Virus record (IMG/VR): IMGVR_UViG_3300042922_000295
Span: 1 to 64,000 of that record
Source: a virus
DNA length: 64,000 nucleotides
Direction: 5' to 3' (one strand)
Numbering within the stretch: the first letter of the stretch is position 1; each line of letters starts with the position of its first letter. Shown piece after piece: positions 7,849-44,929 of the stretch. The translations under genes and the position numbers were made by a program. The notes beneath the pieces were generated by a model, which was not told the origin of the DNA, did not search any database, and saw only the letters and a program-made list of their open reading frames with translations.

Positions 7849-7961
7849 TTCACCCGCTAGCACCTAGCGCTAGGGTGGCACATAGGCTAGACTGGTCTAT
7901 GTACCGCCCGGGAACTAGGTCCCTAGTCACCCCACCGACCCCACATAGGGAGATGTTTCAA

Positions 7962-8624
7962 ATGGCACGCACGAACACCCGCACCGCGCCCGCTACGTCC
8001 GCCAAGTCGTCCGCCACGGTCGACCCGTGGGACGCCGCCGTGGACGCCTACCACGCCGCGTCGGGCGCCGAAAAGTCCCGCGTGCGTCGGGACGCCGACG
8101 CGTCGATGCGCGCCGCGCTCATCGCCGGTGACGCGTCGGGCGCCATGGCGTGGTTGGCCGCTACCGAAAAGATGGTGGCCAGCCGCCCGACGGCCGACGC
8201 GCCCGACTACGTCGACATCGTCGCCCGTCGCATCGTGACCCTTCGGGGCGCGGCCGAATCGATCCTCAACGGGTCGACCCGTCCGGCCGGTATCCCGGAC
8301 GACGTCGACCTGTCCGCCGTCGCGGCACGCGTCGCCACGATGTCCTACGACGACGTGTCGGCCGACGACATGTCCGCCGTCGCGTCCGCAAAGGTGGCGC
8401 GGTCGGCCGTCCGACGCGACATCGCGGACGTCGTGCGCCGTGCGTTCGACGTCACCGGAAAGAACCGGTTGACGGTCGCGGCCATCGCGCGGCACGGTGC
8501 CACCGACGACTACACGCCTTCGGGCGGTGCGGTCGCGGCGCGCATGTTCGGTGGTCGCGGTGTCGACGGATTCACCGCCCACGAGGCGACGGCCGACGCG
8601 CCCCGCACGATCACCCGCGACTAG
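7962..8624 (+). CDS. Putative DNA-binding protein (C-terminal winged-helix-like domain)
   Basis: GGGAG RBS; C-terminus aligns by eye with that of 14160-15122; followed by terminator. Confidence 0.75.
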   Translation: MARTNTRTAPATSAKSSATVDPWDAAVDAYHAASGAEKSRVRRDADASMRAALIAGDASGAMAWLAATEKMVASRPTADAPDYVDIVARRIVTLRGAAESILNGSTRPAGIPDDVDLSAVAARVATMSYDDVSADDMSAVASAKVARSAVRRDIADVVRRAFDVTGKNRLTVAAIARHGATDDYTPSGGAVAARMFGGRGVDGFTAHEATADAPRTITRD

Positions 8625-8637
8625 TCACTAGTCGCCC

Positions 8638-8675
8638 AAAAGGCGCCCGTCCCCTAATCGGGACGGGCGCCTTTT
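8638..8675. terminator. Intrinsic terminator (bidirectional)
   Basis: AAAAGGCGCCCGTCCC-loop-GGGACGGGCGCCTTTT. Confidence 0.9.
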
Positions 8676-8689
8676 CGTGTCCCTAGATA

Positions 8690-8976
8690 GTTGCCCCGGG
8701 CGACAGTCGCCTAGCGCAACTACGAGCTACGCGGACGGTTGCCAGGGGCAACTATCCCGGTTGCGTCGGGCGACTGTTGCCTAGGGCAACGAACGCGTGT
8801 GTGCCGTTCTGACGGCCGTACACGCGTCGACCCTACCCACCTACCCACCTAGCGCTACGCGCCCCGTACGCGGGCGCCTAGGCACGTCTACGGCGAGATT
8901 GTGCCTAGGCGCCCCGCGCCCGTAGCGGTCGGGCGACTATGCGCCGACTACCGGCACGACTGTTGCCTAGGTCAAC
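8690..8976. repeat. Right cluster of 15-bp palindrome GTTGCC-N3-GGCAAC (6 degenerate copies)
   Basis: Copies start at 8690, 8706, 8738, 8760, 8776, 8962. Confidence 0.85.
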
Positions 8977-9214
8977 CAACGCGTGTGCGCCCCGTAGGCG
9001 CCCGACTAGGCGCCCCGGGTCACCTAGTACCCACCTAGCGCTAGTCGCGTCCCTACGGGGCGCCTAGACACGTCTCACGCGTAGTCGCGCCCCGTGCGCT
9101 AGTCGCCCGCTAGTCGACCGCCCGCGCCCCGCCCGTAGTCACCCGCGCCCCGTGCCACGGGCGCCCCGCGCCGACGATCCTTCGGGCGCATCGGCACCCG
9201 TGCGCGTAGTCACC

Positions 9215-9262
9215 AAAAAGGGCGCCCCACACACGAAGTGACATCTCGTGTGTGGGGCGCCC
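9215..9262 (-). terminator. Intrinsic terminator for 9281-9553
   Basis: 17-bp stem GGGCGCCCCACACACGA/TCGTGTGTGGGGCGCCC with T-run on minus strand. Confidence 0.85.
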
Positions 9263-9280
9263 GTGCGCGCTAGTTATGCG

Positions 9281-9553
9281 CTAGTCGCGTGCCTCGTCGT
9301 GCGCGTCGTCGGACTCGTCCACCATGTCCGCGTAGTGAGCTCGCGTCGCCGTGATCGTCACCTCGTAGTCGGCCGACCATGAGTCCACGCATTCCACGCA
9401 CACAGTCACCGTGTGCTCGCACGTCGTCGGCGCGATGAGAGTTGTGTTGAAAGGTGCGGCCGGTTCGTTCGTCCAGGTGACCCCACCATCGCGTGACACC
9501 CGGTTGTCGCGGATGATGAGTCGCACGTTGTCGCCCGTGTTGAAGGTCATCAT
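9281..9553 (-). CDS. Hypothetical protein with TCEH-x4-C-x2-C module
   Basis: MMTFNTGDNVRL start; upstream TGG-TACGAT extended -10 candidate; own terminator. Confidence 0.65.
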   Translation of the reverse strand: MMTFNTGDNVRLIIRDNRVSRDGGVTWTNEPAAPFNTTLIAPTTCEHTVTVCVECVDSWSADYEVTITATRAHYADMVDESDDAHDEARD

Positions 9554-9750
9554 GAGTCCAATCAATGTGTCGGGTGCGCTAGATTCCCTAGCGCTATGAA
9601 TATCGTACCACAAATGGTCACACTTTGTATTCTGGGTAATGCTGGGAATCCCAGAGAAATGCAGCATTTCAAGTGAAATGAGATATGCCTTTGTATGTGG
9701 CATCCGACTATGAATTGCCTGTGGAAATGGTCACCTGACGAACAAAGGTT

Positions 9751-9759
9751 TGATAGAAT
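9751..9759 (+). promoter_or_regulatory. Extended -10 promoter candidate for rightward early arm
   Basis: TGA-TAGAAT in an AT-richer intergenic region. Confidence 0.5.
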
Positions 9760-9824
9760 GGTCTCGTGCCCGCAACGGGCGCGGATTCGGCAGTCGGACA
9801 CTTTGACCCCATACGGGAGGCATC

Positions 9825-10445
9825 ATGAAGATCAGGGCTTTCAACCTGGTTCCGGGCGCAGTCATCTATGGCCCGAACGAGGAGCCGCGAGTCGTCCACT
9901 CGGTTCACCGCAACGTGGACAACGAGTCGGTCACCCTGTGGTTCGTCGGCATCCTGCGGGCGGCACAGTTCGACTTCAACGAGGACCTGTCCCTCATGGG
10001 CCTGACGCCGCACTACGACGACTGGACGCACGTCGAGACCGACTTCGGCACCGACGCGGGCGACGCCTACGCGAAGGCGCAGATGGCTATGCACAACCCT
10101 GCAGACGACGACGAGGGCGTCCCGTTCGCGAAGTACACGTCAGACGAGCTGTGGGGCCAGGTCCAGTCGGACTACGAGGCGCTCGGTCGGGACGGCGTGG
10201 AGATGCTGCTGGACGAGATCCTGTCCCGCAACCCGCAGTACTTCGACAGGACGGTCCCGGCCGGGTCGCTCGAAGTCGGGACGAAGTTCCGGTTCGCCGA
10301 CAAGCGCGAGTGGTACTACACCGGTAGCAACCAGGACTACACAGTCAAGGAGCACTTCGGCGGTCGTACCACCTTCGACACCCAGACCGGCCAGGGCTCA
10401 GTCCCCAGCGAGTTCCTCGTCCGCATCGTCTCCACGGAGGTCTGA
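9825..10445 (+). CDS. Hypothetical protein
   Basis: GGGAGG RBS, strong GC3 bias. Confidence 0.85.
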   Translation: MKIRAFNLVPGAVIYGPNEEPRVVHSVHRNVDNESVTLWFVGILRAAQFDFNEDLSLMGLTPHYDDWTHVETDFGTDAGDAYAKAQMAMHNPADDDEGVPFAKYTSDELWGQVQSDYEALGRDGVEMLLDEILSRNPQYFDRTVPAGSLEVGTKFRFADKREWYYTGSNQDYTVKEHFGGRTTFDTQTGQGSVPSEFLVRIVSTEV

Positions 10446-10448
10446 ACC

Positions 10449-10916
10449 GTGACGATCCACCAGTTCACCTCGAACGACGCACCGCACCTCGGAGTCATGC
10501 GCTTCTTCGGGCAGCACGTCGGTGTGCAGATTCGCCTGAAGCCGTACGACCGTGCACTGATGGTCCGTATCGACGACGAGGAGGGCACGGCAAGCCTCCT
10601 GGTCGAGACGTACATCGTCCGCGAAGGGGCGCGCAAGACGACGTTCCTCAAGCGCGGGAAGCGCCTGTACGGATTCAAGATGACGGCCGGTGGAGGCTAC
10701 CGTCCAGTCGGTGAGCCTATGGTGATCTGGGATGACGACTTCACCATCACCGAAGAGGTCCCCTGGGGATCGTCGCAGACGACCCGGGAGCGCAACGAGA
10801 AGCGTGAGTGGGAGGGTATGGCGTACCGAGTCGGCGCGCCCCGCGCCCCCATGGACAACGCTGCACGTGTGGCTGAAGGTCACACCACCGACGCAATGGC
10901 ACGTCACTGGCGCTAG
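10449..10916 (+). CDS. Hypothetical protein
   Basis: GGAGG RBS, GC3 bias. Confidence 0.8.
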   Translation: MTIHQFTSNDAPHLGVMRFFGQHVGVQIRLKPYDRALMVRIDDEEGTASLLVETYIVREGARKTTFLKRGKRLYGFKMTAGGGYRPVGEPMVIWDDDFTITEEVPWGSSQTTRERNEKREWEGMAYRVGAPRAPMDNAARVAEGHTTDAMARHWR

Positions 10917-10968
10917 ACGCGCCGACTAGCCTAGTGCTAGTCAGACCCCGAGAGGGAGGCTGGACAAG

Positions 10969-11151
10969 ATGTTCAAGATTCGTCGCCGCTCGTACATCAG
11001 GTGCTCATGCGGCAAGAAGTTCTACATCAGTGACACCTGCCCGATGGCCGGAGCACAGTCGCTCGCCATCCTGCACGTCGTCGCCTGGCACGCGTGGCAG
11101 CCGACCGAGGCACCCGCGATTCTGACCACGAAGGAGTTTCACCGTGCGTGA
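10969..11151 (+). CDS. Small zinc-finger-like protein
   Basis: CSCG...H-x4-H; RBS. Confidence 0.7.
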   Translation: MFKIRRRSYIRCSCGKKFYISDTCPMAGAQSLAILHVVAWHAWQPTEAPAILTTKEFHRA

Positions 11152-11581
11152 CATCACCGAGCCGGACTGGCCGAACCTGCCCCACGCCGTCAAGATCGAG
11201 TCCTACTACGCTCACACCGGGACGAACAAGGCGATCGAGAAGGTGTTCGACACCGAGGCCGAGGCCATCGCCTTCGCCCGGCTCGTCACGCCCGAGGAGC
11301 TGCGCCCGCAGGCCGAGGCGTGCCGCTACGACGAGGTCATGTGGCAGTCGTGCCACATGGAGTGGTGCGTGTCGATCAGCCTGCACCTGCCCAGCATCGT
11401 GGACGAGCCGCGACGGGTCGACCGCAAGTCGCTCGGATACCGGATCGGCTACTTCCTCGGTGAGCGGTGCGCCTACGTCGCCGCATGGATCGGTGACAAG
11501 TTGGCGCCCGAGCTGCCCGCCGGTCACCCGGAGTTCAACTCGCGCCTCGACATCCGCGACGCCGAGGCACACGGCAAGTAG
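11144..11581 (+). CDS. Hypothetical protein
   Basis: AAGGAG RBS, coupled. Confidence 0.8.
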   Translation: MRDITEPDWPNLPHAVKIESYYAHTGTNKAIEKVFDTEAEAIAFARLVTPEELRPQAEACRYDEVMWQSCHMEWCVSISLHLPSIVDEPRRVDRKSLGYRIGYFLGERCAYVAAWIGDKLAPELPAGHPEFNSRLDIRDAEAHGK

Positions 11582-11667
11582 TCACGCCAGGTCCGCCACC
11601 AGTCACATGATTGGTGGCGGGCCTAGTCTGACTAACAGGCTACCGACCCCGACATGGGAGGCTTCAA

Positions 11668-12036
11668 ATGAGCAACACGTACGCGTCACAGCAGGCTGCG
11701 CGCAACATCGGCGGTGTCATCGGCCGAGCGCTGGTCCGAGCGCTCCGCATCCAGTCCGAGATCAAGGGCGACAACACGTCCGCCGTCCTCGCCACCATGC
11801 GCAGGCGTGACGTCGAGCGCGGTCGAGTCGAGGGCGCCCGCACGGTCGCGGTCTGCCTCGCGTACCAGTTCGGGCTCGACGATGGCGCCTTCGACGCCGA
11901 CGAGTTCTACCAGCTCGTCCTCGACGAGGCGTACCGAGCCTACCGGGGAGAGTGGGACAAGGCGCCGGAGGGGACCACCAACTTCTACCGCACCTGGGTG
12001 TTCGACCAGCCCTGGGCCAGCTTCGGCAACCTCTGA
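11668..12036 (+). CDS. Hypothetical protein
   Basis: GGGAGG RBS. Confidence 0.8.
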   Translation: MSNTYASQQAARNIGGVIGRALVRALRIQSEIKGDNTSAVLATMRRRDVERGRVEGARTVAVCLAYQFGLDDGAFDADEFYQLVLDEAYRAYRGEWDKAPEGTTNFYRTWVFDQPWASFGNL

Positions 12037-12055
12037 TCGGGAAGGCTAACTCATC

Positions 12056-12346
12056 ATGAAGGCTCACATGCGCCTCACCGACCGCGAGCGCCAGTACCCG
12101 TTCCCCGAGCTCATCCAGGAGTGCCACGTCCCGGCCGGAGGCTACGACCAGATCAAGGCCAACTTCCCGGAGGTCAGGTCGACACCGCACGACCTGGGTA
12201 ACTTCTTCAGCTCGGCGCGCCGCTACCGAGCGATGTTCGAGTCCATCAACCGCGCCGCGAAGTTGGAGCGCGAGTGGAACGAGCGTCACGCGCACGACAT
12301 GACACCCGGGGCGCGCACGCGGGGCGCCCTCATCGAGGTTGTCTAG
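12056..12346 (+). CDS. Hypothetical protein
   Basis: GC3 bias. Confidence 0.75.
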   Translation: MKAHMRLTDRERQYPFPELIQECHVPAGGYDQIKANFPEVRSTPHDLGNFFSSARRYRAMFESINRAAKLEREWNERHAHDMTPGARTRGALIEVV

Positions 12347-12429
12347 GCGCCCCGTAGGCGCCCGCTAGACACGTCCGGGTGCCACACACCCTGGCGACCT
12401 AGGCGCCCCGCACGCGGGCGCACACACAA

Positions 12430-12460
12430 CGGCCCGACTCGCACACCGCGAGTCGGGCCG
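12430..12460 (+). terminator. Stem-loop, probable terminator
   Basis: CGGCCCGACTCGC-loop-GCGAGTCGGGCCG. Confidence 0.6.
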
Positions 12461-12505
12461 CTCGTGCTGTACGCACAGTCCATGACCCAGATCACTGGAG
12501 GAACA

Positions 12506-13315
12506 ATGGGAAAGAAGTCACGAACCTGGGACGGCTTCTGGTCGGCCATCGAGTCGTACGTGATGGGCGCGACCATGCAGGGCAAGACGCTCTCCATGCA
12601 GCGCGCCAGGAACTTCTGGGACGACCTGGCCGACGAGCAGAAGCGTGACGCTGTCGAGGCGCTGCGCTACAAGAAGCAGAACAACAGTCAGTACCCGTCC
12701 GCGTACACCGAGATCTGGGTGGCCCTCTCGGGTTACGACCCCGAGCCGTTCAAGGACCCCGAGCTGCAGACCGGCCTGCCGACGCTCACGCACCCGGCCG
12801 ACTTCCCTCCCGGGGAGCGCTACCGGATCACGCTCACGAAGGTGAACACGAGCTGGCACTACGTGGTCGACAACCACAAGGGTCACGCCATCGCAGCCGA
12901 CAACCAGCCGACGGCGAGCGCGGCCGTCGTCGCCTCTTCGCAGGCGATGTTCGCGGACATCAACAGCCACACGACACCGCCTCGCAAGGTCTACAACTTC
13001 GTCCTCTACGACCCCGCCGGGCAGATCATCGGCAAGTCGCACGCGGTCGACATCGACGACCCGCAGACGATGATGTCCAACGTCATCAAGTACCTCGGTA
13101 AGCGCTACAACGAGGGGCCTGGCCAGGAGATCATCGAGGCGGGCGCCGGACTCAAGTTCAGGGAGTTCGACGCCGCCAACGACGAGGAGGGGGCCATCAT
13201 CCACGCCATCGAGATCGAACAGGACACCGTCCAGTTCGACAACACCTTCAACGAGTACATCTGGCCCGCCGAATCCAGCACCCGGCGCCAGGTGTTCCAG
13301 TTCACCCTGCTGTGA
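12506..13315 (+). CDS. Hypothetical protein
   Basis: GGAGG RBS before ATG 12506. Confidence 0.85.
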   Translation: MGKKSRTWDGFWSAIESYVMGATMQGKTLSMQRARNFWDDLADEQKRDAVEALRYKKQNNSQYPSAYTEIWVALSGYDPEPFKDPELQTGLPTLTHPADFPPGERYRITLTKVNTSWHYVVDNHKGHAIAADNQPTASAAVVASSQAMFADINSHTTPPRKVYNFVLYDPAGQIIGKSHAVDIDDPQTMMSNVIKYLGKRYNEGPGQEIIEAGAGLKFREFDAANDEEGAIIHAIEIEQDTVQFDNTFNEYIWPAESSTRRQVFQFTLL

Positions 13316-13322
13316 GGTCACC

Positions 13323-13670
13323 ATGAGCATCACCTACGCCATTCCCAACGAGCCGGGCAACAACGACACGGTCGTTCGCACCGAAGTGAAGATCTGGTGC
13401 TCAACCGGGCACCTGGTCACCCAGCGTTCAGTGCGCACCATCGCTGAGTACTTCGCGGAGACCGGGGATGCCATGGACACGCTTGCCAGGTGCAAGCCTG
13501 TCGAGCTGGACGCGGTCATCTTCCGGTGCCTCACCATCATGCGAGGTCCGATGGTCGGCGTCGACGAGCAGATGCGCCTCATGGCACTGCTCGCATGGAC
13601 GGCGAACCGGTATGCACGCGAGGCGCAGTTGTTCGAGCTGCGCAGACGTGCTGCCATGAAGCCGCACTAG
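13323..13670 (+). CDS. Hypothetical protein
   Basis: GAGG RBS. Confidence 0.75.
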   Translation: MSITYAIPNEPGNNDTVVRTEVKIWCSTGHLVTQRSVRTIAEYFAETGDAMDTLARCKPVELDAVIFRCLTIMRGPMVGVDEQMRLMALLAWTANRYAREAQLFELRRRAAMKPH

Positions 13671-13807
13671 ACCTGGAAAAAACGCTGACGTTCCAGGTGG
13701 AAACACTCACGGCTACGTGGTAAGCTCGACGTAGTCGAAACGGCACCATTGCGCCCACCGACGACTGACCCGCCCGGGTCAGTCGAGACCCGTCACGGAG
13801 GAAAGAC

Positions 13808-13957
13808 ATGTACGTCAGCAACGAGGTCATGGAGTTCGGAGTCGCCACCTTCTCGGTCATCGGCCTCCTGTGGTCGGCCAAGGTGGTCGCGGTGTACGTC
13901 ACCAACAAGGTCACCGACACGATCGACTGGTTCCGGGCTCGTCGCACGGCGCAGTAG
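13808..13957 (+). CDS. Small single-TM protein (49 aa, not in ORF track)
   Basis: GGAGG RBS; MYVSNEVMEFGVATFSVIGLLWSAKVVAVYV... Confidence 0.7.
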   Translation: MYVSNEVMEFGVATFSVIGLLWSAKVVAVYVTNKVTDTIDWFRARRTAQ

Positions 13958-13968
13958 TTCCCACAGTG

Positions 13969-14007
13969 GCGCCCCGGTCAGGTGAGTTACAACCCTGACC
14001 GGGGCGC
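13969..14007 (+). terminator. Stem-loop, probable terminator
   Basis: GCGCCCCGGTCAGG / CCTGACCGGGGCGC. Confidence 0.65.
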
Positions 14008-14052
14008 ACTGCAACCGATAACGAATCACCCTGATTCAGGGTGGGATACGTA

Positions 14053-14081
14053 TTGACTCCGCCTAGGTTGCATGACACGCT
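14053..14081 (+). promoter_or_regulatory. SigA-like promoter candidate
   Basis: TTGACT-17 bp-CACGCT. Confidence 0.45.
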
Positions 14082-14159
14082 GAGTTTCATGCCACCCAGG
14101 GACGGTCAATCCGACAACCGTTCCCCACGACCGGACCGACACACAGGGAGTTGAGCATC

Positions 14160-15122
14160 ATGGCACGACGCAAGGCAACCGAGACCCCGGAGACGACCGA
14201 GGTCCAGAGCACGGAGGAGAACACCGTGAGCACCGACACCACCACCGAGGCGCCCGTCGAGGCCGTCGCGGACGCGCCGGAGACGGACGCGCCCGAGGCG
14301 CCCGAGTACGACCTCACCGACTTCCAGGCCGCGCTGAAGCAGGCGCTGGAGGTCCGCGACGAGACGACCGGCGTCGTCCCCGAGGCGAACGTCAGCGAGG
14401 TCGTCGTCGCGTACCGCCAGATCAAGGGCGCGGCGGGCAAGCGCGCCGCCAAGGAGATCGTCGACGAGGCGATGAAGGAGGCGATGCGCGAGGCGAACCT
14501 GTCCGTCGCCCGTGCCAACCTCTCCATCAGCGAGAAGCTCGTCGCCGGTCCGTCCGGCGGCGGCTCGTCCAAGTCGTCCACGCCCCGCGAGCCGGTCGAC
14601 CCGACCGAGGCGTTCGTCGAGCTCGCGGCCGGTCTGCGGCTCGCCACGACGCTCGTCGGCAACACCGCGCCCGAGGGTGTCGCCGAGGACTGGCAGGAGA
14701 AGGCGAAGGAGAAGGTCGACGACGCCTTCGGCGACGCCGAGACGTTCCTCGCCTGGCTCCAGAGCGAGGACGAGGGCAAGGGCGACGAGCCCGAGGTCCC
14801 CGCCTTCGTGAAGGCGGCGGTCAAGCTCGCCCTCGGCAAGTCGGCCCGCGTGGGCACGGCTCGGGCGCGTGCCACGGGCGGCGGCTACTCGGGCGAGCGC
14901 CGCGACGTCGCGAAGCACATCCAGTCGGCCTTCGCCGACGTGGCCGAGGGCACGTTCCTCGCGGTCGCGGAGATCAGGAACCACAAGTCGGAGGAGTACG
15001 GCAACGACGCCCCGAGCGCCGGTGCCATCTCCGCCCGCCTGTTCCCCCGCAACGGCAAGGTCACGATCGAGGGCGTCGAGCCCGCGACGCAGAACGGCAA
15101 GAAGGGCGCCGTCAAGGCCTGA
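14160..15122 (+). CDS. Putative DNA-binding protein (acidic N-terminus, C-terminal winged-helix-like domain)
   Basis: Very strong codon bias; own promoter candidate and terminator; RRDVAKHIQSAF...PSAGAISARLF. Confidence 0.8.
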   Translation: MARRKATETPETTEVQSTEENTVSTDTTTEAPVEAVADAPETDAPEAPEYDLTDFQAALKQALEVRDETTGVVPEANVSEVVVAYRQIKGAAGKRAAKEIVDEAMKEAMREANLSVARANLSISEKLVAGPSGGGSSKSSTPREPVDPTEAFVELAAGLRLATTLVGNTAPEGVAEDWQEKAKEKVDDAFGDAETFLAWLQSEDEGKGDEPEVPAFVKAAVKLALGKSARVGTARARATGGGYSGERRDVAKHIQSAFADVAEGTFLAVAEIRNHKSEEYGNDAPSAGAISARLFPRNGKVTIEGVEPATQNGKKGAVKA

Positions 15123-15140
15123 CGTCGGCCTGCACGACCC

Positions 15141-15180
15141 GGCCCCGCACTCTCCCACACGGGAGGGTGCGGGGCCTTCG
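15141..15180 (+). terminator. Intrinsic terminator
   Basis: GGCCCCGCACTCTCCC-loop-GGGAGGGTGCGGGGCC-TTCG. Confidence 0.75.
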
Positions 15181-15220
15181 TGCTGTAGGGTACAGCACGA
15201 GTCACGGAAGGAGAGAGAAC

Positions 15221-15490
15221 ATGAGCACGAACCTCACGATCAACAACACGAACAACGGAGGCTTCCCTGGCTATCGGCCGGTGAAGAACGCGTGGGCCGT
15301 CTTCTGGCTCGACATGTTCTTCGGCTTCCTGGGCGTGCACCGCTTCTACCTGGGGCACGTCGGACTCGGCGTCCTGTACCTGTTCACCGTGGGCCTGTTC
15401 GGTATCGGTGCCATCGTCGACCTGTTCATCGCCTGGCGCATCACGCGCAAGGAGAACATGCGACGCGGCCACGGTCCCGTCACCCGCTGA
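15221..15490 (+). CDS. TM2-domain membrane protein
   Basis: FFGFLGVHRFYLGH...LYLFTVGLFGIGAIVDL is the TM2 signature. Confidence 0.9.
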   Translation: MSTNLTINNTNNGGFPGYRPVKNAWAVFWLDMFFGFLGVHRFYLGHVGLGVLYLFTVGLFGIGAIVDLFIAWRITRKENMRRGHGPVTR

Positions 15491-15526
15491 CTCCAACACC
15501 ACTGACCCCACACGGGAGGATTCACC

Positions 15527-15910
15527 ATGAGCCGCATCGACCGCGACCTGCAGACCTGGATCGAGCAGCGCGCCACGCAGGGCCACGTCAACGAGAAGAT
15601 CGGGCTGGCCATCGACGAGGCGCCGGAGTTCGACTACCTCGACCCGAGCGCCAACCTCTACGAGGTCGCGGGCACCTACGCGGGTGCCGTCGACTTCGAG
15701 GTCATCGTCACCGGTCCGTACGAGGTGAACGTCGCCGACTGGTGCGCCGAGTACTACGCCAAGACCAACCAGGAGACCGGCGACGGTGAGCCCTGGGAGA
15801 TCACGGTCACGCCGTACGTCAAGGACGACGAGACGGGTGAGTACTTCACGCACATGAGCAACGGCGACATGCCGACGTACAAGGTCACCGACGAGACCTG
15901 GAACGCCTGA
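15527..15910 (+). CDS. Acidic hypothetical protein
   Basis: GGGAGG RBS. Confidence 0.85.
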   Translation: MSRIDRDLQTWIEQRATQGHVNEKIGLAIDEAPEFDYLDPSANLYEVAGTYAGAVDFEVIVTGPYEVNVADWCAEYYAKTNQETGDGEPWEITVTPYVKDDETGEYFTHMSNGDMPTYKVTDETWNA

Positions 15911-16167
15911 TGGCACTCGGTGACGGGATCGTCCGCGCCATCGAGACGCCCAAGAACCGGCGTGACATCATCCCGGCAGGCACTCGCGAGGTGTCGGTCA
16001 CGCTCGCCACACTCGGCAAGCAGCGCATGCGAGTGATCGACCGAGGTATTGCCATCGTGACGAAGGAGTATGTTGCGAAGTGGGGCGAGGTGCCGTGGGA
16101 CCTGGCAAGCCTGCACTTCCACTTCGTCACGGTCCAGTGCGTCGTGGTGCTGGAGGTCCGGCCGTGA
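15910..16167 (+). CDS. Hypothetical protein
   Basis: TGATG coupling. Confidence 0.7.
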   Translation: MALGDGIVRAIETPKNRRDIIPAGTREVSVTLATLGKQRMRVIDRGIAIVTKEYVAKWGEVPWDLASLHFHFVTVQCVVVLEVRP

Positions 16168-16892
16168 CCTACACCTGCGGCGCGTGCAAGCGCCAGCACG
16201 CCGACCCGTACCAGGCGCGCATCTGTTACGGGCTCGCTTCGCCGTACCCGGCACCCATGGCTGCGCCGCACTACGACGGCCGCGACGAGCCTGGCTCGAT
16301 GTCGCCTCGTCAGGAGCGCGTACTCGTGGAGCAGTACGCCGCGACCCGTGACATGACGCACCCGCACGGCCGTCGCCTGTCCGTCAACGCAGCATCCAAG
16401 CTGATCACCGAGCTGAAGGAGAAGGCCGTGAGTGGCGAGCTCAAGCTTCCCGAAGAGGACCCGCGCCTCACCATGCTCAAGGGCATGTTCGACATGATCC
16501 CGAACGGCTACTTCGCGGTCGAGATGGGCGACGGTTCGCCGCTCAAGTTCTTCCGCATCTCGAAGCGGAAGGTCGGCCACCTCAAGGGCTGCCGTGTCAT
16601 CCAGACGCAGCACGGCGAGGCGTACACGACGCGCATCGTCGTGACCGAGGCGGGGCGCTGGTCGATCCGAGACGACATGATCCTCGACCACCTCATGCTC
16701 GTCGTGGTCGACTACCAGCACGCCGCCATGCGGTACGCCAAGGAGATCGGCAAGTGCGCCCGGTGCAACGCCGAGCTGACCGACGAGCGCAGTCGGTGGT
16801 ACGGCATCGGTCCCGAGTGCGAGAAGCACTGGCCCTGGTACATCGAGGCCGTGGACCTGGAGCACAACGGAGTTCCGTACCGTGCAGGGTAA
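16164..16892 (+). CDS. DUF6011-like zinc-ribbon protein
   Basis: CARCNAELTDERSRWYGIGPEC. Confidence 0.8.
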   Translation: MTYTCGACKRQHADPYQARICYGLASPYPAPMAAPHYDGRDEPGSMSPRQERVLVEQYAATRDMTHPHGRRLSVNAASKLITELKEKAVSGELKLPEEDPRLTMLKGMFDMIPNGYFAVEMGDGSPLKFFRISKRKVGHLKGCRVIQTQHGEAYTTRIVVTEAGRWSIRDDMILDHLMLVVVDYQHAAMRYAKEIGKCARCNAELTDERSRWYGIGPECEKHWPWYIEAVDLEHNGVPYRAG

Positions 16893-17319
16893 GACCAAGG
16901 CTGGGATCGTTGGTGCGGTCGTCCTGCTCGTTGCCGGTTTCGGCATCGGGCAGGGCGTCCAGCCCAAGGTCTACCAGCCTGAGCCACGAACCGAGGTCGT
17001 CGTCAAGTACATCGACCGCGTCGAGGAGGTGGAGGTCGAGGTTCCCGCCGAACTTCCCGCCGTCTGTATCGAGGCGATCGACGCCATGCACGCGCTCCGC
17101 CTGAACATGGAGAGCATCGACACCGCAGCAGGTGACATCCTGCTGGAGGGTGCAGCACTCCAGTCGGCCGCAGTGCAGAACGACGTCAACGGCATGGTCC
17201 TCTCGCAGGAGGCTATCCGTGAGAGCCTGTCCACACTGGACACCGGCACTGTCGAGAAGCTCGACCTCATCAACCACATCGATTCATCGCTTGAGCGCTG
17301 CGAGTCGGCTATCGGGTGA
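16882..17319 (+). CDS. Membrane-anchored or secreted protein
   Basis: N-terminal hydrophobic segment then helical region. Confidence 0.75.
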   Translation: MQGKTKAGIVGAVVLLVAGFGIGQGVQPKVYQPEPRTEVVVKYIDRVEEVEVEVPAELPAVCIEAIDAMHALRLNMESIDTAAGDILLEGAALQSAAVQNDVNGMVLSQEAIRESLSTLDTGTVEKLDLINHIDSSLERCESAIG

Positions 17320-17515
17320 CGCGTTCCCTCGTACGTACGCGCCCCGTAGGCGCCCGACCACGGCCGACCGCTACAGGATCACCCGTCCGGCCGTCCGCGC
17401 CCCGTGGCGCCCCGTGCGGGCGCCCGTGCGGACGGCCGTAGCGGGGCGCCCCCGTGGTCGGGCGCCCCCGCCCGTAGCGCTATGATGTACCTACCGAAGA
17501 AAGGAACGAGACCTC

Positions 17516-17731
17516 ATGAAGCACACGTGCCAATGGGTCACCGAAGATGACACTGTGTGCGGCGAGAGCGCCGAGCACGAGCAGCGCCTGCCCATCGCAT
17601 TGGGCGCGACCGGTGTCATCTTCTTGTGCGACGCGCACAAGGCGAAGTTCAACCAGCTGATGCGGAAGAACCGGCGACTCGCCGCCCGCGTCGGCTACAC
17701 CCGTGGTGACCGAGACCGTCGGAAGGACTAG
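17516..17731 (+). CDS. Small zinc-binding hypothetical protein
   Basis: AAGGA RBS; C..C..CxxH; TATGAT -10 candidate at 17481. Confidence 0.7.
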   Translation: MKHTCQWVTEDDTVCGESAEHEQRLPIALGATGVIFLCDAHKAKFNQLMRKNRRLAARVGYTRGDRDRRKD

Positions 17732-17737
17732 AGACCA

Positions 17738-19282
17738 GTGACCAGCACCAAGCCGTCTTGCGAGACGTGTCCCGCCTTCATCAAGGCGGAGGATGTACCG
17801 GGCAAGCTCCGCCGCGCAACTGGCTCAGCCATGTGCGGACGGTTCTTGATCCCCCTTGACCGGCCGACACAGGCCGAGCCCAAGGTGCTGAAGAAGGTGC
17901 ACGAGCACTTCGCATCGACCTGCGGGTCGTACGGCGAGCCGATGCCACCGACGCCCGAGGAGGCGCGACTCACCGTCGCGTTCCCCGACCCCGACCGACA
18001 GGTCAACACGCAGGGCACACCCAACTCCGCTGCGGTGCAGTCATGCAGCGGCTGTGCGCACTTCGTGCGAGACGACGCCGTCGCCCGCGAGTTCGGCTGG
18101 GTGACCGGGATGTGCTCGGCCAAGGGCAAGCTCGTCCTCACCAACCGCCAGACGTACGAGGCCCGCGACTGCGACTTCCGTACGTTCGGGGCACCTCGGA
18201 CCGAGACAGACGGCATCACCCTGTTCCCCGAGTACGCCGATGACTTCGGAGCGTACGACCCGGTGAAGGACTTCATCAACAACCTGTCCTCCGGTCCGGT
18301 CGACCCGCTGTCCTACGAGAGCGACGCGCCGGTCACCGAAGCCGAGCAGGCCGAGGGTGTGCAGGCGTGGCGCAAGATCGAGGACCCCGAGACCGGGAAC
18401 AGCACCCTGCTGCCGATCTTCCGGCCGTCGTACTTCGACGAGGACATGCAGGCGCTCATCCCCAAGACGGGCGACCCCGAGCACCCCGAGAACTACGTCG
18501 ACCACTTCCGAGGTGTGTACCTCGCTGCCGTGTGCTGGCAGGAGCTGGACGAGACGCCTGCCCTGTGGGGACAGGCCGGGACCGGCAAGACGGAGTTGTT
18601 CCGTCACCTCGCCTGGCTCATGCAGCTTCCGTTCCGCCGCATCAGCATCACAGGGTCGACGGAGCTGGACGACCTCGCCGGGAAGATGCGGTTCAACAAG
18701 GAGCAGGGTACGTACTTCCAGTACGGCCGTCTCCCGATGGCATGGTCGCACCCGGGTGTCATCTGCATCGACGAGCCGAACACCGGCGCGCCTGACGTGT
18801 GGCAGTTCATCCGCCCGCTGACGGACAACAGCAAGCAGCTCGTCCTCGACATGAACAAGGGCGAGGTCATCAAGCGTCACGACAGCGCGTACCTCGGCAT
18901 GGCGATGAACCCAAGCTGGGACGTCAAGAACGTCGGCACCATCGAGATCGGTGACGCAGACGCTAACCGACTGTTCCACGTCTACGTCGACCTGCCGCCG
19001 GAGAAGTTGGAACGCGAGATCATCAAGGCTCGCGTGAAGCTCGACGGCTGGGAGCTGTCCGGTCCTCAGATGGACATGCTCATGGGCGTGGCCAGGGACC
19101 TGCGCGCCCTCGTGGTCGACGGTTCGCTGCCGATCTCGTGGGCCATCCGCCCCCAGATCAAGGTCGCCCGCGCCCTGCGCTGGTTCGACACGGTCACGGC
19201 GTACAGGCGTGCCGTTGCTGACTACCTGGAGCCTGCCACCCAGGACATCATCCTGGACGTCGTGCGCTCGCACGCGTCCTGA
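17738..19282 (+). CDS. MoxR/CobS-like AAA+ ATPase with Cys-rich N-terminal domain
   Basis: Walker A GQAGTGKT, Walker B ICIDEPN, AMNP sensor I, DADANRL. Confidence 0.9.
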   Translation: MTSTKPSCETCPAFIKAEDVPGKLRRATGSAMCGRFLIPLDRPTQAEPKVLKKVHEHFASTCGSYGEPMPPTPEEARLTVAFPDPDRQVNTQGTPNSAAVQSCSGCAHFVRDDAVAREFGWVTGMCSAKGKLVLTNRQTYEARDCDFRTFGAPRTETDGITLFPEYADDFGAYDPVKDFINNLSSGPVDPLSYESDAPVTEAEQAEGVQAWRKIEDPETGNSTLLPIFRPSYFDEDMQALIPKTGDPEHPENYVDHFRGVYLAAVCWQELDETPALWGQAGTGKTELFRHLAWLMQLPFRRISITGSTELDDLAGKMRFNKEQGTYFQYGRLPMAWSHPGVICIDEPNTGAPDVWQFIRPLTDNSKQLVLDMNKGEVIKRHDSAYLGMAMNPSWDVKNVGTIEIGDADANRLFHVYVDLPPEKLEREIIKARVKLDGWELSGPQMDMLMGVARDLRALVVDGSLPISWAIRPQIKVARALRWFDTVTAYRRAVADYLEPATQDIILDVVRSHAS

Positions 19283-19321
19283 TTCACCACCACCGACCCG
19301 ACACCTCGGAGGCATTACATC

Positions 19322-19807
19322 ATGAGCATCAACCCGACTGACATCGACCACCTGCTCGGCGACACCCTGACGATGCCGCCGCTCCACATCTACTCGGACA
19401 GCCAGGGGCAGGTACGTCTGCTCAAGCGGGCGCCCGTCCGACACGAGGCGTTCGCCGCCCACACGGCGCACGTGCAGGTGGTGCAGGCTGCGCCTCGCCG
19501 GACCCAGATCGAGCAGTTCGCCTGGGACCGGGCCGACTGGTTCACGGAGAAGTGGACCGCCTTCGTCGACGCCGAGGGCGACTCGCTCACGCCGATCTTC
19601 GACGAGGTCAAGCGCGAGCAGGAGGAGCGCGCCAAGGCGGCGCCGATGACGATGACCCGCCTGCGCAAGATGAAGGTCGCTGACCTGCGCGAGTGGGTTC
19701 GGGCGAACATCGACCCCGACCTCCGTCGCGACGAGGTCATCGACGCGGCTAGCAAGTACGTGCTGCTGCACATCAGCCGCGACGACATCCTGCCCAAGCT
19801 GGGCTGA
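19322..19807 (+). CDS. Hypothetical protein (C-terminal small helical domain)
   Basis: GGAGG RBS; LRKMKVADLREW resembles SAP/Rho-N-type motifs. Confidence 0.8.
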   Translation: MSINPTDIDHLLGDTLTMPPLHIYSDSQGQVRLLKRAPVRHEAFAAHTAHVQVVQAAPRRTQIEQFAWDRADWFTEKWTAFVDAEGDSLTPIFDEVKREQEERAKAAPMTMTRLRKMKVADLREWVRANIDPDLRRDEVIDAASKYVLLHISRDDILPKLG

Positions 19808-19810
19808 CCG

Positions 19811-33167: not shown

Positions 33168-33181
33168 AAAGCGAGAACGGA

Positions 33182-41595: not shown

Positions 41596-41900
41596 TGCTG
41601 ACGGTGTCGGTCAAGGTCAATGACCTCGAAGTCGCCATCGTGGAAATCAAGAACGTCCAGACGAACGAGGACGGGACTGCTAACTACGTAGCGACCTTCG
41701 AGGTTGACCGGATGGGTGCGCGAGGCCGACACCGTCGCAGGCTGTTCGGATTCCCGCGCACGCAGTACAACGCACTTGGGCTACTCAAGTTGGCCCTGGA
41801 TTCACTCGACCCGAGAGACTTGGAGCTCGAAACCGATGGGACTGGTACATCAGATCTGGCACGGCGACAGCGTGGAGCTGGCCCAGCGCTTCCACGCTAA
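41595..41900 (+). CDS. Hypothetical protein
   Basis: TGATG coupling. Confidence 0.7.
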   Translation: MLTVSVKVNDLEVAIVEIKNVQTNEDGTANYVATFEVDRMGARGRHRRRLFGFPRTQYNALGLLKLALDSLDPRDLELETDGTGTSDLARRQRGAGPALPR

Positions 41901-42564
41901 GCGTCGCATCCAGAGCGTCATCACCGACCCGCCCTTCGGCGTGGACAACCTGTCGAACATGGCGACGACGCAGGCTGGCAAGGAGTATGCCCGCAAGATC
42001 GCCAACGACGAGTCCCCCGAGGTGGCGATCAAGGTCTTCCGTGACGTCATGGAGTCCGTCATCCCCGGGATGAAGGAGGAGTCGGACATCTACATCTTCA
42101 CGGCGCACCAGGTGCTGGAGGAGTGGCTGGTGTTCACCCGGGACCTCCTGGAGCCGCACGGCTTCCGCCGCAAGGCGATCCTCGTGTGGGAGAAGGATGG
42201 CCCCGGCATGGGCGACCTCAACTCGTGGGGCATGGGCTGCGAGTTCGTCCTGTACTACAAGCGGGGCAACCGCGAGAAGTCGGACAAGCGCCGGAACAAC
42301 GTCCTGCACCTCCCGCAGCTCAGGCCGAACGAGCTCATCCACCCGCACGAGAAGCCGGAGCAGTTGCTGGAGTTGCTCCTGAAGCACTCGACGGACCCGG
42401 GCGACTTCGTCATCGACCCGTTCGGTGGTAGCGGCAGCCTCGTGCGCGCCGCTCGCCGGTGCGGCCGGTCGGCGGTCGCCATCGAGCTGGACGAGAAGAA
42501 CTACGAACTCGCCAGCAAGAAGCTCAACGAGGGCGACGGCGGAGGCTTCGACTTCGGAGTGTGA
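41836..42564 (+). CDS. Orphan amino-DNA methyltransferase (N6A/N4C, beta-class motif order)
   Basis: ITDPPF, HPHEKP, DPFGGSGS. Confidence 0.92.
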   Translation: MGLVHQIWHGDSVELAQRFHAKRRIQSVITDPPFGVDNLSNMATTQAGKEYARKIANDESPEVAIKVFRDVMESVIPGMKEESDIYIFTAHQVLEEWLVFTRDLLEPHGFRRKAILVWEKDGPGMGDLNSWGMGCEFVLYYKRGNREKSDKRRNNVLHLPQLRPNELIHPHEKPEQLLELLLKHSTDPGDFVIDPFGGSGSLVRAARRCGRSAVAIELDEKNYELASKKLNEGDGGGFDFGV

Positions 42565-42674
42565 TCGACCTGCCAGGCGGGGGCGGCGTATCCGGTAGTG
42601 CACGCACTATCACGCCGCCCCCGCTTTCGGCTACCATGACACCACCCGAAGCCCCGACCCAGCAGGAGGCACCA

Positions 42675-43028
42675 GTGAGTACGACCGAAGGCCAGGAGGT
42701 GCGGGAAGTCCACCCGTTCTCCATGGACAGGATCAGCCCTGTCATGAGCTTCGCCCCCGTCCCCGAAGTCGAGGCGGAGGTCCCAAAAGAAGAATCTGCA
42801 CCGGAGCCTGCTCCCGTGCCCGATCCGACGCCGACGACTCCGGACCCGGAGAAGAAGGACCCGGAGGACGACCCGCTCAAGGACGTGAAGGTGAGCGAGG
42901 GGGAGGCTTCGAAGAAGTCTGGGGAATCGACCTCGTCCCCCACGCCGCCCACGACCCCCGCACCCCCGGCGAAGCCTGCGACTGCGGCGAAGGTGTCGAA
43001 GAGCGACTCGCCGACTTCTTCCAAGTAG
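42675..43028 (+). CDS. Low-complexity Pro/Ser/Glu/Lys-rich protein
   Basis: AGGAGG RBS before GTG 42675. Confidence 0.65.
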   Translation: MSTTEGQEVREVHPFSMDRISPVMSFAPVPEVEAEVPKEESAPEPAPVPDPTPTTPDPEKKDPEDDPLKDVKVSEGEASKKSGESTSSPTPPTTPAPPAKPATAAKVSKSDSPTSSK

Positions 43029-43249
43029 ACACGTCATGGCAGGAGCGCGGAGCATGCTTCGGCCGGGCTCCTGCCAAGCGTGGCGAGCCTGACCCCTTCT
43101 TCCCGGAGAAGGGGTCTATCGCCTTGGCGAACAAGGCAATCAAGGAGTATTGCATGGTCTGCCCCGTGCGCAAGCTGTGCAAGCAGTACCAAGAAGAGAC
43201 TGGCTCCGTCGGAGTATGGGGCGGGCAGTACATCGGTCGAGATTCCTGA
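42962..43249 (+). CDS. whiB: WhiB-family transcription factor domain (no canonical start codon; 5' end uncertain)
   Basis: Hand translation: WQERGAC...DPFFPE...CMVCPVRKLC...GVWGG; absent from ORF track. Confidence 0.85.
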   Translation, partial: TPGEACDCGEGVEERLADFFQVDTSWQERGACFGRAPAKRGEPDPFFPEKGSIALANKAIKEYCMVCPVRKLCKQYQEETGSVGVWGGQYIGRDS

Positions 43250-43260
43250 AGGGAACAACA

Positions 43261-43581
43261 GTGAACGTCCACAAGGTCACCATCTACACGGACCCCGAGA
43301 CCGGCAAGCTCAGGTGGCGCTTCGTCCGCAAGGATGGGTCGATCCTCGCGGAGAGCACCAAGGTGTACGACACCCGCGAAGAGCTCATGGAGGACATGCA
43401 GATCGTCGTCGGCCTGTGGTTCGCCTTCGACGAGCACATGCCGGACCGCGTCAAGCAGGTCAGCCTCCACCGGAGCGAGCCGGTCGGCCTGGAGCTGCCT
43501 CAGCCGCAGGTCACCCCGGCCGAGCCCGAGGAGTCCGGCGAGGTCATCGGCGACCCCGACACCGAGGTCGAGCAGCCGTGA
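43261..43581 (+). CDS. DUF1508/YegP-like protein
   Basis: GKLRWRF...GSILAES...Y. Confidence 0.65.
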   Translation: MNVHKVTIYTDPETGKLRWRFVRKDGSILAESTKVYDTREELMEDMQIVVGLWFAFDEHMPDRVKQVSLHRSEPVGLELPQPQVTPAEPEESGEVIGDPDTEVEQP

Positions 43582-44801
43582 GGCCCAAGTCTCTGTCGGC
43601 ATCAGCGCTGCAGGTTGCAGCGCTGTGCCTCTCTCGGTACAACGCGGAGAACATCAACTACTCACGCGGCGCGTCCAACGAGGCGGCTCTCACCGGAACG
43701 TCGGCGCACGGCGCACTGGAGTTGTACGTCCAGAAGGTGTACCTGGAGAAGTCGATGGAGCCGAGCGTCGAGCTGCTCCTGGAGTTCTTCAAGCTGTCGT
43801 ACGTCAAGACGTTCGGCAACTCGGACTTCCGCTCGAAGAACTACAAGGACGGCGTGAAGATGCTCACGGCGTGGTTCGAGCGTACGTCGTTCGAGGGCTT
43901 CGAGGTCATCAGTACGGAGAAGAAGAAGAACTTCCCCATCCCCGTGATGATCGACGGAGTCAAGGACTCCATCCCGTTCAACTATGTTCTCGACCGGTTC
44001 GATCGCCTCGGCGAGACGAAGTACCGAGTCGTGGACTACAAGACGAACATCATGCCGCTCTCGCCGTCCGACCTGCGCGACAAGCCGCAGGCTCGCTGCT
44101 ACGCACTCGCCATGCAGATCGAGCACAAGGATGCCACCCAGATCTGGGTCGAGTTCGACATGCTTCGTCACGACGGCCCCGTGGGTGTGACCTACACCCG
44201 CGAGGACAACGTCGAGACGTGGAAGTGGATCAAGGCCGAGGCGCAGCGCATCATCGACACGCCCACGACCAAGATCGACAAGCAGACGGGCGAGGAGGTT
44301 CCGGCCAAGCTGCCCGAGACGCTCAACCCGGAGTGCAACTTCTGCATCCGCAAGACCACGTGCGAGACGGTCACCCGGAACATCGAGAACGGCGGCGTCC
44401 TGAGTCTCGGGATGCCGGGGATCGCTGACCGCCGCGCCGCGCTGGAGAACCAGAAGAAGGCGGCGGCGGCTGCCATCGAGGAGATCGACCGCGTCCTCCT
44501 GGCCGAGGCCAAGGTTGCCGACGTCGACCTCATCCCGGGAGACGACTACGACCTCGCGGTCGGCGTCTCGAAGCGTCGGGGCGTGGACGCGGAACGTCTC
44601 GTCATGGTACTGGCGGACAGCCCGAACCTGATCCGCAAGTACACCGGCGGCGCGTCCATCACGATGCGTGACTACGACGCCCTGCTGTCCGACCCCGAGC
44701 TCACCGAGGATCAGCGGCGGCACGTGTCAGGGCTGGTTTCGACCCGCTACGGGGAGCCGAGCATCCGAGTCAAGAAGAAGCCGACGATCCGCTCGAAGTA
44801 G
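43578..44801 (+). CDS. PD-(D/E)XK exonuclease (RecB/Cas4-like)
   Basis: LSAS...C, GTSAH, DR...VVDYKT, Q..CY, CNFC.....C. Confidence 0.9.
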   Translation: MRPKSLSASALQVAALCLSRYNAENINYSRGASNEAALTGTSAHGALELYVQKVYLEKSMEPSVELLLEFFKLSYVKTFGNSDFRSKNYKDGVKMLTAWFERTSFEGFEVISTEKKKNFPIPVMIDGVKDSIPFNYVLDRFDRLGETKYRVVDYKTNIMPLSPSDLRDKPQARCYALAMQIEHKDATQIWVEFDMLRHDGPVGVTYTREDNVETWKWIKAEAQRIIDTPTTKIDKQTGEEVPAKLPETLNPECNFCIRKTTCETVTRNIENGGVLSLGMPGIADRRAALENQKKAAAAAIEEIDRVLLAEAKVADVDLIPGDDYDLAVGVSKRRGVDAERLVMVLADSPNLIRKYTGGASITMRDYDALLSDPELTEDQRRHVSGLVSTRYGEPSIRVKKKPTIRSK

Positions 44802-44929
44802 CGCCACGCGGCCCGGTGGGACCCGCCCGGAGACGAACGGCGCGCTAGCGGCGGCACGTCCTCTAGGGAATCGGCTCCACCGGGCCGTTTCGCTTTAAAG
44901 ACCCGACACAACTGTAGTGAGGACTGAAA

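Follow-up and report, generated by a model that had tools for sequence, protein, structure and literature searches.

Gene layout and copies of the element

We describe here a recurrent element in a phage genome from the IMG/VR database (virus record IMGVR_UViG_3300042922_000295, hereafter G000). The window, i.e., the whole stretch of DNA that was analysed, comprises the first 64 kb of this 84.5-kb record and has a guanine-plus-cytosine (GC) content of 64%; the ends of the record overlap, which gives the genome a unique length of about 80.7 kb. In our own codon-bias gene call, the nonstructural genes occupy the + strand at 7.4-45.5 kb and the structural genes the - strand at 45.5-79 kb, with a large noncoding region at 5.75-7.38 kb. 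The element is found in the early, nonstructural arm, where a GACCC word pairs across a short loop with the first half of a GGAGG Shine-Dalgarno (SD) sequence. It is an SD-tied, strand-specific, RNA-level element with a selected short helix that stops at GG|AGG, and it is accompanied by strong SDs, G-poor spacers, and early ORFan genes that are the first cistrons of their cassettes. An earlier note on this DNA had listed 12 copies, all of which we recover, position and sequence alike. It had taken them as a hairpin before about 12 early genes: ten of them (a to j) do form one, but those at 29975 and 44900 carry the GACCCGACAC word without a hairpin on the SD. In the lines below, hyphens set off the 5' flank, the two arms, the loop, and the rest of the SD; dG is the predicted folding energy in kcal/mol, and CM is the covariance model introduced further below.

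7937-7952, + strand: copy a, GAC-CCC-ACATA-GGG-AG, before ORFan 7962-8624; 3-bp stem with dG -3.9, in which pairing is predicted for the SD's first two G
9805-9820, + strand: copy b, GAC-CCC-ATAC-GGG-AGG, before ORFan 9825-10445; dG -4.0, CM match of 16.2 bits
10944-10959, + strand: copy c, GAC-CCC-GAGA-GGG-AGG, before ORFan 10969-11151
11645-11661, + strand: copy d, GAC-CCC-GACAT-GGG-AGG, before ORFan 11668-12036; a 9-bp GC hairpin lies upstream of the copy
12484-12501, + strand: copy e, GAC-CCAG-ATCA-CTGG-AGG, a covarying 4-bp stem, before ORFan 12506-13315; dG -4.5, CM match of 23.8 bits; a terminator-like hairpin plus TCGTGCTG on its 5' side
13787-13801, + strand: copy f, GAC-CCG-TCA-CGG-AGG, before the open reading frame 13808-13957; dG -1.8
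15504-15519, + strand: copy g, GAC-CCC-ACAC-GGG-AGG, before ORFan 15527-15910, in an intergenic gap of 36 nt
19295-19312, + strand: copy h, GAC-CCGA-CACC-TCGG-AGG, a covarying 4-bp stem, before ORFan 19322-19807, in a 39-nt gap behind the AAA-ATPase gene
23763-23779, + strand: copy i, GAC-CCC-AATGAC-GGG-AG, before 23789-24007 (GTG start); a 12-bp terminator-like hairpin lies upstream of the copy
25365-25378, + strand: copy j, GAC-CCG-ACA-CGG-AG, before 25394-25870, about 10 nt 3' of a promoter-like site (TTGAGA-17-TACGAT) and a TAGCGCTA palindrome
29975-29995, + strand: weak copy, the GACCCGACAC word 7 nt before AAGGAG, no hairpin on the SD and 0 extra pairs, before 30002-30244
44900-44922, + strand: weak copy, the GACCCGACAC word, no hairpin on the SD, before a GTG start at 44930 (or 44917)
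14134-14150, + strand: degenerate copy, GACCGACACACAGGGAG, before the conserved gene 14160-15122 (phrog_6708), whose G001 orthologue has GACCCGCACAGGAGG
23009: degenerate copy
41808-41825, + strand: degenerate copy, GACCCGAGAGACTTGGAG, before the DNA methylase gene 41836-42564
42656-42669, + strand: degenerate copy, GACCCAGCAGGAGG, before 42675-43028

Relatives were gathered with the AAA-ATPase (17738-19282) as a handle. The closest is a 63-kb contig, G001, with 53% amino acid identity. The other viral contigs (L018-L021, L031, and L036) are 51-57% identical, or 69% in the case of a partial match, and the metagenome fragments are L010-L013. At identities of 45% or less, the outgroup includes L014, ReqiDocB7 (L035, verified), records resembling TIN2, Woes, and Katyusha, and Gordonia phage Niagara (L006).

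Position and gene class

Over the whole window, GACCC shows no enrichment (237 occurrences versus 245.5 in shuffled sequences); hence, any test of it must be positional. At positions -34 to -13 of all predicted starts it is the top enriched 5-mer, with 19 occurrences against 3.3 expected (Poisson p 3e-9), and is thus commoner before ribosome-binding sites than in controls. The next most enriched 5-mers (CCGAC, ACACA, CCCGA, and GACAC) overlap it. Among the + strand genes at 7-46 kb it precedes 17 of 61 (p 7e-9), and in 18 genes the start of GACCC lies 17-30 nt from the start codon. These k-mer results agree with an independent observation, on this genome, of a (GA)CCCGACAC word whose spacing to start codons is constant. 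Base pairing between the motif and the 16S 3' tail was considered and set aside: to our knowledge, neither GACCC nor the GCA that follows GGAGG matches the actinobacterial anti-SD region.

The genes that carry the motif form a distinct class. When G000 and G001 are pooled, all 24 motif genes lie on the early (+) strand, against 102 of the 163 other genes (p 4e-5); a gap of at least 30 nt precedes 23 of them, against 59 of the others (p 1e-8); and 16 have the full GGAGG, against 29 (p 2e-6). ATG starts are not significantly more frequent (21 of 24 versus 112 of 163, p 0.09), and none of the 24 is a structural gene. These figures bear out the statements of the earlier note that most copies stand before the first gene after an intergenic gap and that none precedes a late gene. 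On the other hand, its description of the element as phage-wide does not hold, as the motif occurs solely before genes that open an early cassette. The spacer between SD and start codon in motif genes is poor in G (13% versus 32% in the genome), and the loop is rich in A (44%). The same pattern is seen in G001, where 10-11 copies occupy the first 9.5 kb of the early arm, each ahead of a gene that comes first after a gap; GACCC and GG(G)AGG are common to all, but the loops differ considerably (TATC, TGAAA, CAACA, ATCAGTTA, AAA, TCA, and GTAA).

The proteins encoded behind the ten hairpin copies (7937-25365) have no Pfam match, and two of them show weak matches to PHROG families of unknown function. 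No homologues of these proteins were found in G001 and 16 other related loci, except for weak matches of those starting at 7962 and 25394. Likewise, the motif genes of G001 are mostly missing from G000. Conserved genes that carry the motif in one genome often lack it in another; the ATPase gene, for instance, carries it in G001 and L012 and lacks it in G000. Because the downstream genes are not shared and the conserved genes differ in the motif, the element tracks position, i.e., the first cistron of an early cassette, rather than gene ancestry. Its distance is constant to the SD and the start codon and not to promoter-like hexamers.

Pairing and covariation of the helix

To assess pairing, a set of copies was picked solely by the presence of GACCC, GGAG, and a start codon, and was read in the register GAC|CC-X(Y)...(Y')X'-GG|AGG. 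The third pair is Watson-Crick in 18 of the 22 copies, compared with 8.9 +/- 1.8 for permuted 3' halves (p<1e-5), with C:G in 13, G:C in 3, A:T in 2, and other combinations in 4. An unbiased version considered every predicted gene with a GGAG SD and scored the longest helix with a 3' arm terminating at the second G, with the upstream halves permuted within each genome. Across twelve genomes of the clade, stems of at least 3 bp are found at 76 of 193 genes versus 53.9 +/- 4.9 (p<5e-4), and stems of at least 4 bp at 31 versus 16.8 (p 5e-4). G001 alone has 18 versus 11.7 (p 0.01) and 10 versus 3.7 (p 5e-4) in these two classes, and eight other relatives have 40 versus 27.9 (p<5e-4) and 18 versus 9.5 (p 0.002). 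As the hypothesis was formed on G000, the results from G001 and the eight other relatives constitute an independent replication, and the covariation of the stems that had been remarked upon from the window can be regarded as real. In contrast, the outgroup Gordonia and Rhodococcus phages are depleted in such helices, with stems of at least 3 bp at 6 of 100 genes versus 12.8 and none of at least 4 bp versus 3.4.

Individual stems of the relatives illustrate the compensatory changes: CCCG/CGGG and CCCA/TGGG in L012; CCAAT/ATTGG and CCTG/CAGG in L019; CCCCG/CGGGG, CCGT/ACGG, and CCCA/TGGG in L021; and, after the ATPase gene of L011 and hence in the same place as copy h, CCGAA-CGA-TTCGG-AGG. A MAFFT alignment of the copies was not structure-consistent, and six gap-free copies served as the seed of an 18-nt covariance model. 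This retrieved 41 matches at E<=10 in 217 kb, 40 of them on the early strand, with the E-values of single matches being weak (0.01-10). On the resulting alignment the third pair is CG in 27 copies, GC in 7, AU in 4, and UA in 1, and its covariation score is 0.335 versus 0.081 +/- 0.025 in shuffles and at most 0.028 with a slid partner. Since this alignment is fitted to the structure, we rank it below the permutation tests.

These data speak directly to the notion that the pairing is a by-product, either because C/A-rich, G-poor leaders followed by a GGGAGG SD yield CCC...GGG pairing without selection or because a module of about 30 nt serves mainly as microhomology for cassette exchange. Permutations that retain both composition and the two halves of the motif still give p<1e-5, the result is replicated in other genomes, and the enrichment is specific to one register. 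Moreover, pairs other than C:G covary (AG/CT twice, GA/TC, CT/AG, GAA/TTC, and AAT/ATT). C/A-rich leaders are general in the group, as CCAACCAACC-type leaders precede the SDs of the outgroup phage Niagara; yet, the outgroup phages with such leaders are those depleted in helices. A nonsignificant permutation result for G000 taken alone fits a by-product, and so do identical copies of 18-21 nt within a genome (G001 2423 and 3529; copies in L014), which show spread by duplication or conversion. The module also flanks ORFans, as do the PeSL (promoter early stem-loop) cassettes of T4-type phages (PMC2839356), but unlike these it comes without a sigma-70-like promoter. Overall, we hold a by-product to be improbable.

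Register, folding, and a model for translation initiation

Only helices terminating at the second G of GGAG are enriched; the signal is marginal one base earlier and absent further into AGG. Predicted helices are of 3-5 bp with energies of -1.8 to -7.2 kcal/mol, typically -4. When 70-nt contexts are folded in silico, most copies give the first two SD G an unpaired probability of 0.00-0.1, and the A stays free. Thus, in the predicted fold, the SD is half-masked rather than buried: the helix pairs the first two G of GGAGG and never reaches AGG. The earlier note had proposed that the hairpin sequesters the ribosome-binding site. SD nucleotides are indeed paired, but "sequesters" is an overstatement because the helix, at about -4 kcal/mol, covers only the first two G. 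Its observation is confirmed, and its interpretation is partly supported.

We estimate a probability of roughly 0.5 that the element is a cis-acting module for translation initiation at the mRNA level, marking the first gene of fast-turnover early cassettes in one lineage of actinobacterial siphoviruses. The element consists of (G)A-C, then CC with 1-3 variable bases, a free A-rich loop of 3-10 nt, and the complementary 1-3 bases with GG; this GG is at once the first half of a consensus GGAGG SD, followed by a G-poor spacer and usually ATG. The transcript is predicted to fold here into a hairpin of 3-5 bp with about -2 to -7 kcal/mol, holding the 5' half of the SD while always leaving AGG single-stranded. 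Such a hairpin could set, in cis, the way in which the 30S subunit is presented with a strong SD on cistrons left unopened by upstream ribosomes. Initiation might be damped in this way; alternatively, the SD might be insulated from stronger long-range pairing in an RNA with 64% GC. That the helix alters translation, and in which direction, is inferred. The element has a covariation-backed helix that holds SD nucleotides, and an effect on initiation is presumed from predicted energies.

Several observations weigh against this model. G000 alone does not show the effect in the unbiased all-gene permutation (stems of at least 3 bp at 17 genes versus 13.4, p 0.12; of at least 4 bp at 2 versus 2.7, p 0.79). 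A generic descriptor, A-CCX-loop-X'GGAG-start, is only mildly enriched genome-wide (20 versus 12.1 +/- 3.6). The loops of G000 resemble a single consensus, GACCC[C/G]ACAC, and part of the apparent pairing could accordingly stem from two sequence subfamilies. The helix is also weak, typically -4 and in some copies -1.8 kcal/mol, and may affect initiation little behind a GGAGG SD. Furthermore, a purely cis model leaves two features of the relatives unexplained. L014, L019, and ReqiDocB7 keep a GACCC(G)ACA word before the SD without any hairpin, and the unpaired 5' flank is invariant within each lineage, being GA in G000 and G001 and CAT[C/T]A in L021 and L012. This invariant, lineage-specific flank is the main point that such a model does not account for.

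Related words among relatives and the question of a reader

The loops of G000 are nonrandom and fit the consensus just given; CCGACA and CGACAC are separately enriched in this genome (9 versus 0.8 and 9 versus 1.0), and the weak copies at 29975 and 44900 are instances of this word lacking a hairpin on the SD. In L014 the GACCC(G)ACA word occurs 10 times versus 1.2 expected, five of these at an SD with a start, and at 2657-7516 the repeat lengthens to about 21 nt, GACCCGACAAGT[CT]AGGAGCAA. L019 has four such words (2669-19694), and the published, culturable Rhodococcus phage ReqiDocB7 has them at 4066, 5436, and 9954, in the form GACCCACA(A)GGAG ahead of three genes. L020, L021, and L012 have the hairpin with a 5' flank of A or CAT[C/T]A in place of GA. 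Gordonia phage Niagara has neither the hairpin nor the GACCC word. Thus, the group presents a patchwork of start-associated words, in which the half-SD hairpin is used in G000, G001, L020, L021, L012, and L011.

The leaders of the outgroup Gordonia phages are start-associated in their own manner. In Niagara (765-5365), C/A-rich CCAACCAACC(ACC) leaders stand right before the SDs of early genes that are first after a gap; genes 94 and 93, for example, share an identical CCAACCAACCACCGAAAGGGGATGG. These leaders are a start-associated repeat of a different kind.

The invariance of the unpaired flank inside a lineage, together with its difference between lineages, is what would be expected if the hairpin were the operator of a trans-acting, lineage-specific reader, be it a phage or host protein or a nuclease, that binds or cuts the hairpin with its GA and AGG flanks and switches the set of early cassettes jointly, in the manner of T4 RegA or RegB or of the MS2 coat-protein operator. 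A helix too weak to do much by itself, the imposition of the motif on unrelated genes, and the retention of GACCC(G)ACA without a hairpin in L014, L019, and ReqiDocB7, which suggests sequence-specific recognition, point the same way. However, the loop is free in both sequence and length (3-10 nt), whereas known hairpin-binding proteins usually read the loop. The earlier note had suggested a phage RNA-binding protein as the reader; Pfam searches of 50 early-region proteins returned no RNA-binding domain, and neither these nor PHROG searches of 20 turned up an RNA-binding protein or RNase of such a kind as a candidate. Nor is there a clade-specific candidate with a predicted function: the product of 26304-26537 is clade-restricted but unannotated. 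A trans-acting reader hence appears unlikely to us, though it deserves to be kept in view. We give a similarly low, tentative standing to a composite proposal, in which the half-SD hairpin and its flank are the operator of a trans regulator that coevolves with the flank and switches the early ORFan cassettes jointly, while the module doubles as microhomology for cassette capture. If true, this would amount to a post-transcriptional early regulon combined with a gene-capture site in actinobacteriophages, and it could be a possible explanation for the start-associated sequences of cluster K phages considered below.

The clade-restricted gene 26304-26537 (+ strand) encodes a 77-amino-acid protein with homologues in G001, L018, L020, L021, and L036 and none in the available outgroup loci. 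It has no Pfam or PHROG match and is among the few clade-restricted conserved early genes.

Promoters, terminators, and other signals of the early region

A sigma-70 scan found four promoter-like sites in 20 kb, one of which adjoins a copy of the element (25320-25348, before copy j). A reading of the element as a promoter or transcription start site is ruled out by -10-like hexamers that are missing or at variable distances, by this single adjoining sigma-70-like site, and by the gaps of 36 and 39 nt that house copies g and h. An operator in double-stranded DNA is ruled out by the variable spacing of the arms (3-10 nt) and the strict single-strand orientation. Antitermination sites of the lambda nut/boxB type have a GNRA-like loop that is read by an N-type peptide, and there are one or two of them per operon, downstream of the promoter. 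The present loops are unconstrained in sequence and length, and about ten copies are each fixed to an SD; this identity was therefore rejected as well. A search with Rfam 15 at the gathering score gave 0 matches in the 64-kb window.

Strong GC hairpins of 11-12 bp followed by (T)TCGTGCTG are found at about 12430-12470, 15150-15190, and 23720-23760. They resemble actinobacterial intrinsic terminators with an imperfect U-tract, or 3'-end protectors; a scan for terminators with U-tails stayed at the chance level. With just 15-25 nt between these hairpins and the motif copies or SDs downstream of them, there is no room for a promoter.

This arrangement favours a further explanation, in which the element is a signal for RNA processing or stability: an early polycistronic RNA would be cut at GA|CCC, and the hairpin at the new 5' end would shield the cistron from RNase E or RNase J. 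Mycobacterial RNase E prefers to cut 5' of cytidines, and the conserved purine-A before the first paired C partly fits that preference. A 3-bp hairpin, on the other hand, makes a poor 5' stabiliser; the CATYA flank of L021 and L012 does not fit a purine at -2; and processing offers no reason for the 3' arm to coincide with the SD or for the helix to stop at GG|AGG. We regard processing as a rather improbable explanation.

An 8-bp palindrome, TAGCGCTA, occurs 11 times versus 0.26 expected from shuffles. It is concentrated at 7.2-9.6 kb (7234-9596) and is also present at 17475, 25348, and 26037, often as CCTAGCGCTAGG, or as TAGCGCTATG beside -10-like hexamers (TATGAT at about 17480 and TACGAT at 25343). 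It is probably a transcriptional operator or a promoter-linked set of sites of the early region, separate from the start-associated hairpin.

A possible late-gene counterpart was considered and rejected: (G)CCTGAC[A/G] occurs before the SD at 4 places versus 0.19 in the upstream regions of late genes, but this would not survive correction for 4,096 6-mers, and the window shows no excess of the word. Its occurrences lie 3-8 nt before the SD, where a three-pair CCU...AGG helix is possible, at 48402-48450 (- strand) of the window and at 70484-75862 (- strand) of G000, beyond the window.

Genome ends and affiliation

Positions 1-3831 of the window overlap with 80667-84497 of G000 at 93.7% identity; 1371-3831 is identical to the far end, and the first 1370 nt are diverged. 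Either the assembly could be circularly permuted and drawn from a mixed population, or the terminal repeat could be imperfect. No nucleotide match was returned when 13 kb was compared by megablast with 50,697 phage records. At the protein level, the tape measure, AAA-ATPase, and CobT/VWA proteins share 30-45% identity with those of Gordonia, Rhodococcus, and Tsukamurella siphoviruses such as GMA7, GTE7, Katyusha, ReqiDocB7, and TIN2. The sequencing runs that contain the G000 stretch are two soil-metagenome DNA runs only, which may be its source. Scans of genome contigs yielded a single distant fragment in a Gordonia metagenome-assembled genome, and no host was assigned.

Comparison with known systems

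Hairpins that occlude an SD include the MS2 replicase operator, those of the early transcripts of T4 e and soc, and RNA thermometers. The element is like them in having a local helix with SD nucleotides just upstream of the start codon. It differs in that two SD bases are paired in a helix of 3-5 bp with an unconserved loop and in that one design stands before about ten unrelated genes rather than one regulated gene. Among the post-transcriptional systems of T4, RegB cuts GGAG and RegA binds AU-rich single strands. Here again there is a signal in the SD/start region common to many early genes, which could permit coordinated post-transcriptional control, but a structured, covarying element is absent from those systems; no RegB or RegA homologue was found among the scanned early-region proteins (50 with Pfam and 20 with PHROGs).

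The PeSL cassettes of T4-type phages combine a strong sigma-70 promoter with a terminator stem-loop (Arbiol et al. 2010, PMC2839356). In both cases, short repeated modules flank nonessential ORFans in a hyperplastic early region and could mediate the shuffling of cassettes; in the present case, however, the repeat is an SD hairpin devoid of a promoter.

The closest parallel is offered by the start-associated sequences (SASs) of cluster K mycobacteriophages, described by Pope et al. in 2011 (PMC3203893); the likeness to them suggested by the earlier note is apt. Both are short, asymmetric repeats in one orientation that number about 10-20 per genome and overlap the SD, a few nucleotides before start codons that are mostly ATG. 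They are likewise confined to the nonstructural half of the genome, stand before unrelated gene families, and are lineage-specific. Beyond these features the two part company. The SAS consensus, GGGATAGGAGCCC, is absent here: allowing up to 2 mismatches turned up a single hit at the chance level, at 8746 on the - strand, which has 2 mismatches and is not at a start, against a mean of 1.44 in shuffles. The SAS has a fixed sequence of 13 nt in which GGG...CCC surrounds the SD, whereas here (G)ACC and GGAGG are conserved, the stem is variable and covarying, the loop is free, and the SD is itself the 3' arm. No 17-bp inverted repeats like those of the extended SAS (ESAS) were seen, and the phages that carry the present element are akin to those of Gordonia, Rhodococcus, and Tsukamurella, not to cluster K. 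Thus, the element shares the position, orientation, gene class, and independence of gene family of the SAS, but it fails the SAS consensus and host group and is not a member of that family.

What emerges is a second, unrelated phage lineage with the logic of the SAS, namely, a strand-specific repeat on the SD of unrelated, early, nonstructural genes. SASs have been known since 2011, and a 2025 paper (PMC12699233) still described what they do as unverified; in the present lineage, covariation and a sharp register, with the stop at GG|AGG, provide a mutable RNA structure to test. The clade is enriched in half-masked SDs while the related Gordonia and Rhodococcus phages avoid them, and a general account of how early accessory genes are marked for translation must cover both situations. 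In addition, the element tags the fastest-evolving genes of unknown function, the very class in which functions in host takeover and anti-defence are usually sought.

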